64,000 nucleotides of DNA, taken from contig JAEWJO010000803.1 in the NCBI GenBank assembly GCA_023386455.1, forward strand, positions 1,069 to 65,068. The letters are read 5' to 3'. The notes below the pieces were generated by a model. It did not search any database. It saw nothing but the letters and a program-made list of their open reading frames with translations, and had not been told where the DNA came from. Positions 21,717 to 28,860 of the stretch are shown one piece after another. Positions within the stretch are counted from its first letter, which is position 1. Each line of letters opens with the position of its first letter. The position numbers were made by a program, and so were the translations under genes. This stretch comes from Pseudomonadota bacterium (lineage in GTDB: Bacteria; Myxococcota_A; Polyangia; Haliangiales; Haliangiaceae).

Positions 21717-23699
21717 ATGGTTGGTTCTGGCTTGTTCCTGGCGAGCATCCCCGTGCTGGTGATCGGGGCGGCACTCGCCGCGGGCCTGCGCGGAAATCGC
21801 GCGCGCGGCATCGCAGCGCTGGGCTCGCAGGCGATCGCGATCGCGCTCGTGATCGCGAGCATCGCGCCGATTCTCGGCGGTGACGGACGCATCGACGTGA
21901 CGTGGGCGTGGCCCGTGCCGATCGAGCGCATCGCGTTCCGGGTCGACGCGCTCGGCGCGTTCTTCCTCGTGTGGTCGCTGCCGATGACGTTCCTCGGCAC
22001 GCTGTACTCGACCGGCTACCTCCAGCCGTACTTCAACCACGGCCGCAACGGCGGGCCGCACTTCGCGCTGCTGAACCTCACGGCGCTGTCGTTCATCCTG
22101 ATCTACGCGGTCCAGAACGCGCTCGTGTTCCTGCTCGGCTGGGAGATCGCGGCGGTTGCCGCGTGGTTGATGGTCATCTGGGACTACCGCAACCAGAAGA
22201 TCCGGTTCGCCGGGTTCAACTACCTCGTCTCGACCCATGTCGGCCTGTTCGTCCTCGTCGCCGCGTTCATGTTGCTGCACAGCTACACGGGGTCGATGGA
22301 CTTCGCCGACTTCGGGACGTACCTCGCGAGTCATCCGTCGGGGCAGGGCACGCTGTTCCTGCTGCTCGGCATCTCGTTCGCGCTGAAGTCGGCGTTCTTT
22401 CCGTTTCATACGTGGCTGCCGCGCGCGCACTCGGCCGCGCCGGCACACGTCTCGGCGTTGATGTCGGGCGTCATCCACAAGGCGGGTCTGTTCGCGTTCC
22501 TGCGCTTCACGCTGCTCTCGGGACGGCCCGAGCCCTGGATGGGATGGGCGGTCCTGATCTTCGGCGCGGCGTCCGCCGTGTTCGGCGTGCTGTACACGGC
22601 GACGCAACGCGATCTGAAGCGCATGCTCGGCTACTCCTCGACGGAGAACGTCGGCATCGCCGGGATGGCGATCGGGGTCGGCATGCTGGGCTGGGCGTGG
22701 TCGGATCCCGTGCTCGCGACGGTCGGGTTCGGCGGCGGCCTCCTGCACATCCTCAATCACGCGTTCTTCAAGTGCTCGCTGTTCTATGCGGTCGGTGCCA
22801 TCTACCGCGCGGCGCACACGATCGACCTCGAGCGTCTCGGTGGTCTCGCGCGCAGGATGCCGAGGACCGCGGTCTACTTCCTGCTCGGTTGCCTCGCGAT
22901 GTGCGCGCTACCGCCGTTCAACGGCTTCGTCGGCGAGTTCCTCGTCTATACCGGGCTCCTGTCGGGCGGCGCGCCGACCATCGAGGGCGACGTCGTGCTC
23001 GTGTGCGCGGCCGCGGTCCTCGCGTTCGTCGGGGCCGTCGGAGCGCTGTCGACGACGCGCGCGTTCGGCCTCGCGTTCCTCGGCGTCCCTCGCGATCCGT
23101 CGATCCACGTGACCGACGATGCGCCACGCTCGATGGCGGTCCCGATGGCCGTGCACAGCGCCGGCATCCTCGTCCTCGGGCTGTTCCCGACCGCGGCTCT
23201 CGCGATCATCGAGCCGGTCCTCGCGCTGCTCCCGGCGAGCATCGGCCACGCACCCGACCTCGCCGACGTGCTCGCGCCGGTGGTGTGGGCGAGCCGCGGA
23301 CTCGCGGCCGCGCTCGCGGTCTCGATGATCGTCGCGTGGAGGCGGCGAGCCCGTGCGCGCGAGAGCGTGACCTGGGGGTGTGGCTACACCGCGGCGACGG
23401 CGCGCATGCAGTACACCGGGAGCTCGTTCTCGGCGCAGCTCTCGACGCTGTTCCGGCCGGCGCTGCCGGTGCTGACACGCGAGCATCTCCCGACCGAGCC
23501 GTTCCCCCAGCACGCGTCGCATCTGTCGACCCATCACGTCGATGCGGTCGAGCAGCGGATGTTCGAGGTGATCGGCCAGGGCGAGCAGTTCGTGCGGGAG
23601 ACCTCGTCGCGGATCCCGGAGCAGCCGCGGTTCGCGTTCGCGGCGGGTCTGCTCGCGCTCGTCGTGCTGGCGCTCGTCGCGCTCGGCGAGGTCCTGTGA
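21717..23699 (+). CDS. HyfB/HycC/NuoL-like antiporter-type membrane subunit
   Basis: Start at MVGSGLFLASI (ATG 21717). Motifs WEIAAVAAWLMV, FPFHTWLPRAHSAAPAHVSALMSGV, STENVGI, HILNHAFFK typical of hydrogenase-4 component B / ND5. Confidence 0.9.
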   Translation: MVGSGLFLASIPVLVIGAALAAGLRGNRARGIAALGSQAIAIALVIASIAPILGGDGRIDVTWAWPVPIERIAFRVDALGAFFLVWSLPMTFLGTLYSTGYLQPYFNHGRNGGPHFALLNLTALSFILIYAVQNALVFLLGWEIAAVAAWLMVIWDYRNQKIRFAGFNYLVSTHVGLFVLVAAFMLLHSYTGSMDFADFGTYLASHPSGQGTLFLLLGISFALKSAFFPFHTWLPRAHSAAPAHVSALMSGVIHKAGLFAFLRFTLLSGRPEPWMGWAVLIFGAASAVFGVLYTATQRDLKRMLGYSSTENVGIAGMAIGVGMLGWAWSDPVLATVGFGGGLLHILNHAFFKCSLFYAVGAIYRAAHTIDLERLGGLARRMPRTAVYFLLGCLAMCALPPFNGFVGEFLVYTGLLSGGAPTIEGDVVLVCAAAVLAFVGAVGALSTTRAFGLAFLGVPRDPSIHVTDDAPRSMAVPMAVHSAGILVLGLFPTAALAIIEPVLALLPASIGHAPDLADVLAPVVWASRGLAAALAVSMIVAWRRRARARESVTWGCGYTAATARMQYTGSSFSAQLSTLFRPALPVLTREHLPTEPFPQHASHLSTHHVDAVEQRMFEVIGQGEQFVRETSSRIPEQPRFAFAAGLLALVVLALVALGEVL

Positions 23700-24610
23700 G
23701 CGTCGTCGCCAACATCGTCGCGTTGCTCGTGATGCCGATCCTGATCACCGGCACGATCAATCGCGTCAAGTCGCGATGGGCCGGACGTATCGGCCCACCG
23801 ATCTTCCAGCTCGCGTTCGATCTGTGGCGGCTCGCCCACAAGACGCCCGTCTACAGCAAGGTGACGACACCGGTGTTCCGGCTCGGGCCCGTGGTCGTGC
23901 TCGTCACGGCGATCGCGTCGGCGTGCATCGTGCCGCTCGCCGGCACCGAGTCACTCGTCGGGTTCCCGTTCGACTTCGTCTGGTTCGCCTACGTCTGGTC
24001 CCTCGGCCGGGTCGCCCTGATGCTCGGCGCGCTCGACACCGGCAGCTCGTTCGAGGGCATGGGCGCCTCGCGGGAGGCGACGTTCGCGACGCTGCTCGAG
24101 CCGGTGCTGTTCCTCGTCGCGGGTGCGCTGTGTCTGCACGGTGGCGTGCGCAGTCTCGAGGCCGCACTCGTGCCACGTCTCGACGGGCCCTCGGCCGTCG
24201 TCATGTGGGCCGCGGCGGTCGCCGCGCTGATGGTGGTGATCCAGGTCGAGGCGTCGCGCATGCCCGTCGACGATCCGACGACCCACCTCGAGCTGACGAT
24301 GGTCCACGAGGTCATGGTGCTCGACCACAGCGGTCCCGAGCTCGCGATGCTGCACCTCGGCGCGGCGATCAAGATGTACGTCGCGATCTCGGTTGCAGCG
24401 ATCCTGCTGAACCCGCTCGCGGGCCACGCGTCGGTCGCCGCCGTCGCGGCGCACGCCGGCATCTGCCTCGCGATCGCGGTCGTCCTCGGGCTCGTCGAGT
24501 CGCTGGTCGCGCGCCTGAAGTTGCGCGTCGTCCCGCAGTACGTCGTGATCGGCCTCGTCGCCGCCGGCGTCGCGCTGCTCTCGATGCTCGGGCGCGGAGG
24601 TCATCCGTGA
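23696..24610 (+). CDS. HyfC/HycD/NuoH-like membrane subunit
   Basis: GTGA overlap. RVKSRWAGRIGPPIFQ, GSSFEGMGASRE, EASRMPVDDP, ELTMVHEVMVLDHSGPE motifs. Confidence 0.88.
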   Translation: MSVVANIVALLVMPILITGTINRVKSRWAGRIGPPIFQLAFDLWRLAHKTPVYSKVTTPVFRLGPVVVLVTAIASACIVPLAGTESLVGFPFDFVWFAYVWSLGRVALMLGALDTGSSFEGMGASREATFATLLEPVLFLVAGALCLHGGVRSLEAALVPRLDGPSAVVMWAAAVAALMVVIQVEASRMPVDDPTTHLELTMVHEVMVLDHSGPELAMLHLGAAIKMYVAISVAAILLNPLAGHASVAAVAAHAGICLAIAVVLGLVESLVARLKLRVVPQYVVIGLVAAGVALLSMLGRGGHP

Positions 24611-28111: not shown

Positions 28112-28860
28112 TGTTCAAGGCGCTGCGTGTCCGGCTGGCTCAGGGCAATCAGTTCATACCCGACGTCCGCACGGCGACGCCGATCGGCTTCCGCGGCCTG
28201 CCGAGGATCGCGTCGGGGGCGTGCGCGAGTGGTTGCGACGCGTGTGTCTCGGCGTGTCCGACGGGCGCGATCCGGCTCGATCCGCTGTCGATCGACCTCG
28301 GGCGCTGCACGTTCTGCAGCGATTGCGTCACGGCGTGTCCCGAGAACCTGATCGAGCTGACGCCCGAGCCGCGGATGGGGGCGACCACGCGCGAGGACCT
28401 CGTGGTCACCGCGGGCGCCATCGAGCGCGCGACGATCCGCGCGAACGAGGGATTCGCGAGGCTGTTCAAGCGATCGCTCCGGCTGCGGCAGGTGTCGGCC
28501 GGCGGGTGCAATGGCTGCGAGCTCGAGCTCAACGCCACCGCGAACGTCAACTTCGACCTTCAGCGCTTCGGCATCGAGTGGGTCGCGTCGCCGCGGCACG
28601 CGGATGCACTCGTGCTCTCCGGGGCGCTGACGCGCACGATGCGAGATGCCGTCCGCCTCGCGTGGGACGCGATGCCAGACCCGCGCTTCGTCGTCGCGGT
28701 CGGTGCCTGCGCGATCTCGGGCGGGCTCTACGACGGCGCGCGCGGGGTCGAGCGAAGCTTTCTCGACGACGTCATTCCGGCGCTCTACGTGCCCGGCTGC
28801 CCGCCGCATCCCCTGACGTTCGTCAACGCGATCCTCGATCTGCTCGGGGTGCCGGGATGA
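28111..28860 (+). CDS. Fusion of a 2x[4Fe-4S] ferredoxin (HyfH/NuoI-like) with a hydrogenase small subunit / NuoB-like domain (HyfI-like)
   Basis: TGATG junction (an in-frame GTG at 28108 is an alternative start). N-terminal CASGCDACVSACP and CTFCSDCVTACP. C-terminal GGCNGCELE, GACAISGG, VPGCPPHP (NuoB-type cluster ligands). Confidence 0.88.
   Translation: MFKALRVRLAQGNQFIPDVRTATPIGFRGLPRIASGACASGCDACVSACPTGAIRLDPLSIDLGRCTFCSDCVTACPENLIELTPEPRMGATTREDLVVTAGAIERATIRANEGFARLFKRSLRLRQVSAGGCNGCELELNATANVNFDLQRFGIEWVASPRHADALVLSGALTRTMRDAVRLAWDAMPDPRFVVAVGACAISGGLYDGARGVERSFLDDVIPALYVPGCPPHPLTFVNAILDLLGVPG

Follow-up and report, generated by a model that had tools for sequence, protein, structure and literature searches.

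We describe an operon in a 64-kb stretch of DNA (the window; ~69% G+C) from contig JAEWJO010000803.1 of a bacterium of the Haliangiaceae, in which six consecutive genes between 21717 and 28860 encode a complex related to the group 4 [NiFe] hydrogenases and to complex I, with a large subunit that has lost the cysteines of the nickel-iron site. It is highly probable that this is an energy-converting hydrogenase-related (Ehr) complex and that it has no canonical NiFe site. The locus is a well-preserved member of an already named class and not a new kind of system. Our preferred interpretation is that it encodes a functional Ehr-type complex, EhrABCDLS, which acts as a ferredoxin-fed, ion-translocating oxidoreductase with perhaps a quinone as acceptor, and we give this interpretation as a whole roughly an even chance of being right. 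The Ehr class is said to have been named in work of Coppi in 2005 and of Marreiros and colleagues in 2013. Such complexes were called Ech-hydrogenase-related in Geobacter and later energy-converting hydrogenase-related, and papers up to 2026 either give their function as unknown or treat the complex as non-functional (PMC6349859, PMC10284858, PMC10432482, PMC7894505, PMC13194489).

Genes were called from a codon-position G+C frame plot together with inspection of in-frame starts, stops and junctions, families were assigned with Pfam and NCBIfam, and solved relatives were sought with phmmer/HMMER against PDB sequences. By the frame plot and start/stop inspection there are eight consecutive + strand genes (21717-29853), the first six of which are coupled by the stop/start overlaps GTGA, GTGA, ATGA, ATGA and TGATG. 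Gene A (21717-23699, 660 amino acids (aa)) encodes EhrA, a HyfB-like, NuoL-type antiporter-like membrane subunit; gene B (23696-24610, 304 aa) EhrB, a HyfC-like, NuoH-type membrane subunit; gene C (24607-25224, 205 aa) EhrC, a small HyfE-like membrane subunit; and gene D (25221-26651, 476 aa) EhrD, a HyfF-like antiporter-like subunit of the NuoN/M type. These are followed by gene E (26648-28111, 487 aa) for EhrL, a fused NuoC::NuoD/HycE-like large subunit, and gene F (28108-28860, 250 aa, with an alternative ATG start at 28111) for EhrS, in which NuoI/HyfH-like and NuoB/HyfI-like parts are fused; all six lie on the + strand. A first-pass annotation made from the sequence alone had proposed the same six genes, family labels and overlap junctions, and the frame plot, the junctions and the Pfam and NCBIfam matches agree with it.

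EhrL matches the Pfam family Complex1_49kDa (9e-27), with a weak N-terminal match to Complex1_30kDa (NuoC-like), and among solved proteins phmmer found HycE (7z0s_E, 1.7e-35), MbhL (2.2e-32), Nqo4 (5.5e-25) and MbsL (5e-15). In the alignment with HycE the N-terminal motif DRVCGICGFAH stands opposite ETIAGDTTIGH, so that the cysteines become Ala and Thr, and the C-terminal LDPCYSCT stands opposite FDLSYCGS, where they become Ser and Gly; the Arg of the hydrogenase RxCGxC is replaced as well. The motifs that characterise the EhrL family in their stead are ETIAGDTT (188-195) and CNKSFDLSYCGSDL (474-487). This alignment upholds the loss of all four NiFe cysteines that had been read from the sequence earlier, with one refinement: the N-terminal ligand pair is entirely gone, whereas the C-terminal motif is not cysteine-free, with Cys483 immediately ahead of the lost fourth ligand and Cys474 seven residues N-terminal to the lost third. 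Neither of the group 4 motifs, RxCGxCxxxH (L2) and DPCxxCxx[HR] (L5), is found in any of the six frames of the whole window, and the same is true of a HypC-type N-terminus. The protein ends four residues past the lost fourth-ligand position and so is without a cleavable C-terminal extension. The AlphaFold2 (AF2) model of EhrL has a predicted local distance difference test score (pLDDT) of 80, and its top Foldseek match is HycE (template modelling score, TM, 0.75), followed by the fused NuoCD of E. coli.

The replacement motifs are shared widely, in the general form ET[IL]AGD[TS] and [CI]NKSFxLSY[CSA]GxDL across phyla. ET[IL]AGD[TA][TS] and [IL]CNKSFxLSYCGxDL are near-constant in 15 sequences from Myxococcota, Verrucomicrobiota and Planctomycetota at 41-47% identity. 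An exhaustive HMMER search over 1.84 billion cluster representatives gave 4643 matches at E<=0.001, of which 515 reach E<=1e-30. The best 150 representatives at 50% clustering were aligned with the window protein (151 sequences), and Gly192-Asp193 is present in 124 of them; the combination of CGxC and ELCYSC.DR that marks true hydrogenases occurs in seven, only at or below ~235 bits. Judged from this alignment, Asp193 is near-universal at the former metal site. The positions that separate the Cys-less family from the nearest hydrogenases (residues of the latter in brackets) are G165 (Phe), D193 (Val/Ala/Met), D244 (Gly), P451, S481, G484 and L487, and D244 is Asp in 129 of 144 sequences. The beta1-beta2 loop of EhrL is of the hydrogenase type with the EP Glu; the family keeps this loop Glu144 and, in most of its members, His198. 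The residues around the former active site carry carboxylate and hydroxyl groups in the family alignment.

Since the catalytic ligands have been lost in a class without demonstrated function, the operon might be taken for the non-functional relic of a hydrogenase operon, as was assumed for the Geobacter complex in one study (PMC13194489). This explanation is effectively excluded. Pairwise dN/dS against three relatives is 0.16-0.31 (0.17-0.31 for EhrL), with no internal stops, and the decay in relatives that would have spoken for a relic was thus not seen. The open reading frames (ORFs) have stayed intact, with their translational coupling, and both promoter and activator are conserved; the replacement motifs, the iron-sulfur (Fe-S) cysteines and the pump residues are kept across phyla, and the family is large. 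In Geobacter, moreover, Ehr subunits have been observed at the protein level, and they respond to which electron donor is given (PMC7894505). The dN/dS values, the intact ORFs and the conserved motifs together make it clear that the complex is maintained for function.

The closest EhrL homologues come from metagenome-assembled genomes (MAGs) of Kofleriaceae, Haliangiales and Myxococcales (71-86% identity), and the protein of Sorangium sp. So ce204 is 64% identical. A profile of the clade also retrieves MAG proteins of Melainabacteria/Gastranaerophilales, Spirochaetes, Bacteroidota, Latescibacterota and Ignavibacteriales, the matches from Melainabacteria/Gastranaerophilales, Spirochaetes and others being 38-46% identical to the window EhrL, while the 50%-cluster representatives include proteins of Lentisphaeria, Candidatus Magnetoovum and Rhodoferax. 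Ehr complexes have been reported from Melainabacteria, Spirochaetes and Lentisphaerae (PMC6349859), and proteins of the same phyla are thus among the profile matches or representatives obtained here. In a rough neighbour-joining (NJ) tree, which is distance-based, rooted on the CGxC hydrogenases and has no named Geobacter EhrL in its set, the window EhrL groups with Sorangium-like and Variovorax/Rhodoferax proteins in a derived radiation marked by AGD[TS] and CNKSF..SYCG, and the seven CGxC hydrogenases fall outside the Cys-less radiation.

Taken with the homology of EhrL to NuoD and the group 4 large subunits, the absence of both CxxC pairs, and the presence of NuoB-, NuoH- and antiporter-like subunits in one operon, its grouping with the phyla named in the Ehr literature and apart from hydrogenases, as far as a distance tree lacking a named Geobacter EhrL can place it, identifies the complex as Ehr. 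The Ehr-type assignment of the first-pass annotation has therefore stood up, on the evidence of ligand loss, a retained proximal cluster and this grouping. The Geobacter sulfurreducens system (EhrA-1/A-2/B/C/D/L/S, GSU0739-0745) has the same subunit set, including a large subunit that lacks the NiFe CxxC pairs and a small subunit with the proximal-cluster cysteines, and differs in having two HyfB-like subunits (ehrA-1 and ehrA-2) where there is one here; some Planctomycetota relatives have two or more. We also observed two tandem hyf/ehr-like operons on one replicon in Variovorax sp. PBL-E5 plasmid 3 (locus L016, 3929-11213 and 14625 onward), and a tandem pair on one contig from the Joint Genome Institute (JGI), the second operon of which has a gene for an HTH_17-EIIA protein inserted after its first gene. 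Tandem operons on one replicon imply that paralogous Ehr complexes coexist in a single genome.

The small subunit keeps its cluster ligands. EhrS matches Oxidored_q6 (1e-28), Fer4_7 (4e-10), the NuoB family (1e-31) and the iron-sulfur subunit of formate hydrogenlyase (FHL; 7e-11). Its four NuoB-type cysteines (CNGC, GACA and GCPP) and the eight of its ferredoxin domain are invariant in 15 homologues from three phyla, 12 Fe-S cysteines in all; the earlier reading that the four proximal-cluster ligands were retained is borne out. By this measure all the cysteines needed for three [4Fe-4S] clusters have been kept. The fusion of ferredoxin and NuoB parts is also found in Variovorax, Verrucomicrobia, Planctomycetota, Spirochaetes and others. 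As had been noted in the first-pass annotation, the window shows no maturation or input genes: the ORFs scanned there, among which small ORFs were not covered exhaustively, yielded no domain of a Hyp protein, an endopeptidase or formate dehydrogenase, and no consistent electron-input partner (formate dehydrogenase, NuoEFG or hyp) was found in the window or in most relatives' loci. The lack of a conserved input module, together with a NuoI-like domain fused to the small subunit, fits a freely diffusing electron donor.

The membrane subunits carry the residues expected of an ion pump. EhrA matches Proton_antipo_M (4e-53) and, at 5e-133 but under the cutoff of that model, the NCBIfam hydrogenase-4 subunit B. 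In 12 homologues its E143, K224, K255, H344, H348, K352 and E407 are invariant or nearly so, a set that includes the Glu typical of transmembrane helix 5 (TM5) and the Lys typical of TM7; its start codon is conserved among aligned relatives. EhrB (NADHdh, 2.5e-25) has ten acidic residues that are invariant across three phyla (E120, E127, E135, E185, D192, D193, E199, E205, D210 and E268). EhrC matches the NCBIfam family of the hydrogenase-4 membrane subunit HyfE only weakly (7.5e-5); its E151 is invariant, and its position in the operon is kept in all relatives compared. EhrD matches Proton_antipo_M (5e-43) and HyfF (7e-67), its best solved relatives are MbsH' (6u8y_H, 1.4e-29) and MbhH (6cfw_H), and its E123, K210, K330 and K347 are invariant. 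On these residues the complex is very probably ion-translocating. Of the earlier description of a membrane-bound, probably ion-translocating module that is not a hydrogenase, the first part is thus strengthened, and the last is likely, though short of proven, for the class.

The core modules are homologous to the Q- and P-modules of complex I (NDH-1; Nqo4/5/6/8/9/12/14), and the TM5 Glu, the TM7 Lys and the equivalent of Nqo4 Asp139 are common to both. The architecture here is that of complex I minus the N-module, comparable to the ferredoxin-dependent NDH-1. Where complex I has separate NuoA, J, K and M, there are only four membrane subunits here, and its NuoI and NuoB have their homologues fused in EhrS; the tandem CC of its N2 cluster is replaced by CxxC (CNGC). 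The group 4 hydrogenases (FHL/Hyc, 7Z0S; Hyf; Mbh, 6CFW) provide the best sequence and fold matches and share with the window complex the Hyf-like membrane subunits and the CxxC ligation of the proximal cluster. Among hydrogenases the nearest sequence neighbours have the C-terminus NKSFELCYSC.DR and are called group 4f-like (PMC10284858).

Under the interpretation that we prefer, a soluble low-potential donor, most plausibly reduced ferredoxin, would dock on the fused, solvent-facing NuoI-like domain of EhrS, and electrons would pass through two [4Fe-4S] clusters to an N2-like cluster. The acceptor would be reduced at the interface of EhrL and the NuoH-like subunit, and would most likely be a membrane quinone. 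The carboxylate-lined former NiFe pocket (E144, D193 and D244) might handle protons, and the reaction would be coupled to translocation of H+ or Na+ through EhrA and EhrD. The complex could possibly run in reverse, an ion gradient then driving the formation of reduced ferredoxin. A ferredoxin-type donor is in our estimate about evenly balanced, the weak support for it including two loci from anaerobes in which ferredoxin-linked genes lie near the operon: a four-subunit 2-oxoacid:ferredoxin oxidoreductase and NuoEF-like genes in L017, and HydABC-like genes in L021. A quinone is the simplest acceptor, although its usual ligands are missing, and we regard it as rather unlikely when taken by itself.

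Several observations weigh against this interpretation. The alignment of EhrL with Nqo4 puts G192 at the position of the quinone ligand Tyr87 and I143 at that of His38, so that both ligands are missing; the equivalent of Asp139, which we take to be part of the quinone site of complex I, is the only one present, as D244. Ferredoxin-linked neighbours are sporadic, occurring in two of the ~11 distant or non-Kofleriaceae contexts. In pairwise alignments the Lys that follows the TM7 Lys in MbsH' and MbhH is Asn in EhrD. The AF2 monomer of EhrL, confident in its helical core, has pLDDT <50 at 105-169 and 466-487, which is the active-site region. Ehr complexes also occur in organisms reported to be without quinone biosynthesis (PMC6349859), which argues against quinone as a universal acceptor. 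Finally, no biochemical or structural study of Ehr was found in the literature searched (PMC10284858, PMC10432482, PMC13194489), in which the subunit names EhrL, EhrS and EhrA are swamped by papers on the electronic health record.

Genetic work on a related operon is a further point of this kind. In Azorhizobium caulinodans the operon hyqRBCEFGI encodes HyqG, a fused NuoC::D protein without both CxxC motifs, and its promoter depends on sigma-54 and NifA; in hyq deletion mutants diazotrophic growth is impaired, and the recycling of endogenous H2 and the evolution of H2 under microaerobic conditions are lost in vivo. The authors themselves call a NiFe site "uncertain, if not unlikely" (PMC2650096, PMC3357923). 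The statement in the first-pass annotation that relatives lacking the cysteines have no experimentally assigned substrate overlooked these H2 phenotypes, for which the evidence is genetic and physiological and not biochemical. Such evidence could be indirect, for example through the supply of reductant to nitrogenase. The phenotypes nevertheless do not allow a flat statement that Cys-less complexes never handle H2.

It might then be supposed that the window operon encodes a cysteine-poor "endo-hydrogenase" like Hyq, in which H2 is activated or evolved at a non-canonical site and electrons are exchanged with the quinone pool. The structural gene order B-C-E-F-G-I, the NuoC::D fusion, the CxxC loss and the sigma-54 promoter are all as in hyq, and the large subunit of the Hyq orthologue on pRL11 of Rhizobium johnstonii carries SGDS and CNKSFNCSYSGHDL, which belong to the same motif family (CNKSF..SY.GxDL) as those of EhrL. 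HyqG is however only 32% identical to the window EhrL and falls in another clade of the rough NJ tree, and HyqI (177 aa) has no counterpart of the 2x[4Fe-4S] domain of EhrS. HyqG has CNKSFNCSY where EhrL has CNKSFDLSYC, the equivalent of its Cys-491 being C474 and that of its Cys-497, which Sprecher et al. report as conserved in HyqG, being L480. Hyq is part of the nif regulon under NifA, whereas the operon here has its own activator, and H2 phenotypes have been reported for Hyq only. No hyp genes were found among the scanned window ORFs, and no HypC-type N-terminus occurs in any frame. We consider an H2-handling role of this sort distinctly improbable. On these comparisons the window operon is a cousin of Hyq and not an orthologue.

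Ferredoxin-to-quinone electron transfer has also to be weighed against chemistry at a rebuilt active site. Four cysteines of EhrL, C152, C269, C474 and C483, co-occur in a derived Ehr clade that includes this operon, and CCCC is the commonest pattern at these positions, in 31 of 107 Cys-less representatives. None of them is present in basal Ehr sequences or in the seven hydrogenases. In the alignment C269 falls five residues ahead of His169 of Nqo4, a residue that neighbours cluster N2, and C474 and C483 flank the lost C-terminal ligands. The four could form a new metal, Fe-S or disulfide site. It is conceivable, though we think it quite unlikely, that the gained cysteines and Asp193 build a new metal or iron-sulfur catalytic site, which would make the complex a previously unrecognised membrane-bound, ion-pumping reductase or H2-independent redox enzyme; if so, it might serve the surrounding genes for microaerobic, NO and N2O respiration in the source organism.

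Similarly, a small soluble or inorganic acceptor, such as a nitrogen oxide or sulfane sulfur, might be reduced at the remodelled site, perhaps a new metal or Fe-S site formed by the four cysteines. For sulfane sulfur the example is Pyrococcus furiosus Mbs/Mbx (6U8Y), which has lost the NiFe site and is yet a working ion-pumping reductase, and of which MbsH' is the best solved match of EhrD. The window is rich in genes of the NO and N2O pathways (NirK-cytochrome c, two NorR, two ScdA, hemerythrins and NosZDF) and has a cbb3-type oxidase. Mbs/Mbx, however, consists of 13 subunits with an Mrp module, MbsL matches EhrL far more weakly than HycE does (5e-15 against 1.7e-35), and there is no sulfur-metabolism context in the window. 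Other patterns at the four cysteine positions (CTCS, CCCS, CCNC and others) indicate a stepwise build-up in the tree and not a gain at once, and the NO-gene neighbourhood is not kept in relatives. A small acceptor therefore appears to us a minor prospect, of about the same weight as the new catalytic site.

A last explanation dispenses with net electron transfer altogether. The pump residues are the best-conserved feature of the complex, no conserved donor or acceptor partner was found, and the former active site has a lining of carboxylates and hydroxyls, all of which would suit an Mrp-like cation/proton transporter gated by the redox state of its Fe-S clusters. In other phyla (Verrucomicrobia, Planctomycetota, Spirochaetes and others) a regulator of 224-252 aa with HTH_17 and PTS_EIIA_2 domains stands before or inside the operon in six contexts (L009 3122-3844; L012 4021-4779; L017 4347-5021; L018 4353-5027; L020 4348-5022; and one JGI contig), and PTS-EIIA-type domains are linked to ion and nitrogen homeostasis. 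We know of no description of such a regulator paired with an Ehr operon. But three Fe-S clusters and a NuoB/C/D/I module under purifying selection would be costly for a sensor, and all characterised relatives (complex I, Mbh, Mbs, FHL and Ech) are oxidoreductases. A redox-gated transporter is accordingly improbable, at much the level of the H2-handling alternative.

In the place of the HTH_17 and PTS_EIIA_2 regulator the window has a lineage-specific arrangement in which a divergently transcribed sigma-54 activator without a sensor is accompanied by a methyltransferase and a pseudo-receiver. The activator (20502-21467, - strand, 321 aa) matches Sigma54_activat (5e-63), AAA_lid_14 and HTH_8, and its AAA+ domain has a GAYTGA loop. 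Only ~17 residues precede that domain, leaving no sensor or receiver domain, and Pfam found no GAF or other sensor domain in the protein. It is 88-89% identical in the same divergent position in four relatives (L002, L004, L005 and L007), and the Sorangium operon, too, has a sigma-54 activator nearby. A -24/-12 element (21685-21700, + strand), TGGCGCACTGCTTGCA, has one mismatch to TGGCAC-N5-TTGCW and lies 16 nt before the EhrA ATG at 21717. Five near-consensus sigma-54 matches occur in the window where 0.65 would be expected by chance, and GTGGCG[CT]A-N4-TTGCA is conserved in five loci. Sigma-54 control through an enhancer-binding protein, as proposed in the first-pass annotation, is well founded in that both the element and the divergent activator are conserved in the four relatives. 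The spacing of only 16 nt between the -12 element and the conserved ATG (21700-21717) implies a very short leader of few nucleotides, without an obvious Shine-Dalgarno sequence.

The palindrome CGACAAGGTGTCG (21599-21611, no strand assigned), which is perfect and lies 86 bp upstream of the -24 element, has its only exact copy in the window here. It stands inside a block, GCTACGACAA-N2-TGTCG, that is conserved in five Kofleriaceae intergenic regions, and may serve the activator as an upstream activating sequence. Its use as a marker of a wider regulon was considered and rejected, as one-mismatch copies are not enriched in the window (10 against 7.2 expected); the exact copy alone carries meaning.

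Two genes follow the operon. The first, which begins 22 nt after the EhrS gene, encodes a class I S-adenosylmethionine-dependent methyltransferase (28883-29497, + strand, 204 aa, motif VLDVGSGIG) matching Methyltransf_31 (5e-7) and Methyltransf_25 (5e-6), with weak PDB matches. Copies of it are found 3' of the EhrS gene and/or beside the activator in L001, L002, L004, L005 and L007, and a methyltransferase gene also flanks the Sorangium operon. The second, which overlaps it by GTGA, is a 119-aa receiver-fold ORF (29494-29853, + strand) without a Pfam match (no Response_reg), with 84 homologues that are all nameless or of hypothetical type and restricted to this myxobacterial lineage. Its AF2 model (pLDDT 82) has the (beta-alpha)5 CheY fold, and its top Foldseek matches are the PhoB and RR468 receiver domains (TM 0.64-0.71). 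D49 and D13 vary in a 24-sequence alignment, and Ala stands at the position of CheY K109; with phospho-acceptor Asp, acidic pair and Lys109 all unconserved, the protein is on this alignment a pseudo-receiver. The 3' end of this ORF (29717-29853) overlaps a convergent ABC1/UbiB-like kinase ORF (29717-31213, - strand) by 137 nt, and within the overlap the frame plot favours the + strand ORF up to ~29820. The JGI name of one of its homologues and a weak CpaM match (2.7e-5) had given rise to the idea of a B12-binding domain and a corrinoid-associated methyltransferase, which was rejected, there being no DxHxxG motif and the top Foldseek matches being receiver domains.

The copy number of the pseudo-receiver and methyltransferase genes is variable; in L004 and L007 copies adjoin the activator gene on its strand, and tblastn detected neither gene in the distant relatives L009-L014. 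That these two might be accessory genes of the complex had been suggested earlier, and they do co-occur with the operon in the lineage. The copies beside the activator and their absence from the distant loci, however, make a regulatory role more likely than one as structural accessories. The sigma-54 promoter would on this view be driven by a dedicated sensor-less activator, whose activity is probably set in trans, perhaps by the pseudo-receiver, the methyltransferase or both. In two relatives a gene for a 443-aa ACT-domain malic-enzyme-like protein stands between the EhrS and methyltransferase genes (L002 12845-14176 and L007 12204-13535), and L002 has an additional methyltransferase paralogue beside this insertion.

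The wider neighbourhood of the operon contains many genes of microaerobic and nitrogen-oxide metabolism. Genes for NosZ, NosD, NosF and an ABC-2-type membrane protein (NosY-like by position) are present in the window. A 771-aa ORF with COX1 (CcoN-like) and FixO (CcoO) domains (1757-4072, - strand) would be a fused N-O subunit of a cbb3-type oxidase. A Cu-oxidase_2/3 protein, NirK-like and with a C-terminal cytochrome c domain, is encoded at 13145-14608 (+), and a SCO1/SenC-like gene at 15300-15974. Two NorR-type paralogues (GAF, sigma-54 AAA+ and HTH) at 15978-17528 (-) and 34024-35520 (+) are 53% identical, two ScdA/YtfE-type di-iron repair proteins at 17609-18310 (+) and 42025-42687 (+) are 61% identical, and hemerythrin-domain ORFs lie at 18196-18750 and 19877-20443; to judge by their families these form a duplicated nitric oxide (NO)-stress module. 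Further upstream are a protoglobin-coupled histidine kinase (8566-9999, +) beside a third sigma-54 activator (7214-8839, +), and, on the - strand, two more kinases, a hybrid one with a PAS domain (4176-6113) and a receiver-kinase (6097-7386). The nos region and the window's far end are bordered by multihaem cytochromes of the c554, c7 and MtrC-like types (42144-43922, +; 61363-63333, -; 62859-63980, -); the last two ORFs overlap and may be miscalled.

The first-pass annotation had read an anaerobic or nitrogen-oxide-linked role from the placement of the operon between NO-stress genes and the nos cluster and from its sigma-54 control. The inference from placement is weak, and we rejected the association as a conserved one: tblastn found none of ScdA, YwiC, hemerythrin, NorR, ABC1 kinase or lyase beside the operon in 14 related loci, and none of ScdA, YwiC, hemerythrin, NorR or ABC1 kinase adjoins it in eight Kofleriaceae/Haliangiales loci or in Sorangium. 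Pfam scans of the relatives' flanks gave unrelated genes (E1 dehydrogenase, FIST, histidine kinases, YCII and the ACT-malic-enzyme-like gene), and the activator has no sensor domain. The link to NO and nitrous oxide (N2O) is confined to this genome, and as evidence for function it is weak. The hyc locus of Mycobacterium tuberculosis, in which we take the small-subunit gene to come first, in an order unlike that of the window operon, is reportedly co-regulated with the hypoxia- and NO-responsive DosR network, to go by the title of He et al. 2011 (cited in PMC6177252). The parallel with this mycobacterial locus (Rv0082-Rv0087), which has been described as EHR-type (PMC6728331), is suggestive only.

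Ehr members are spread over Myxococcota, Betaproteobacteria, Nitrospirota, Bacteroidota, Spirochaetes, Melainabacteria and Planctomycetota, and Ehr-type loci are described in the literature from Geobacter, comammox Nitrospira, ammonia-oxidising archaea and M. tuberculosis. The present locus sharpens the question of what such complexes do. The lost NiFe site has been replaced by a conserved Asp/Ser/Thr motif under purifying selection, while the pump and the electron wire are intact and the small subunit of this clade carries a fused NuoI-like input domain. There is in addition a conflict between the general description of Ehr as non-hydrogenase and the published H2 phenotypes of the Cys-less Hyq. 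The source organism is an uncultured MAG, but the cultured relatives Sorangium sp. So ce204, Variovorax sp. PBL-E5 and Rhodoferax ferrireducens are tractable for knockout and biochemistry.

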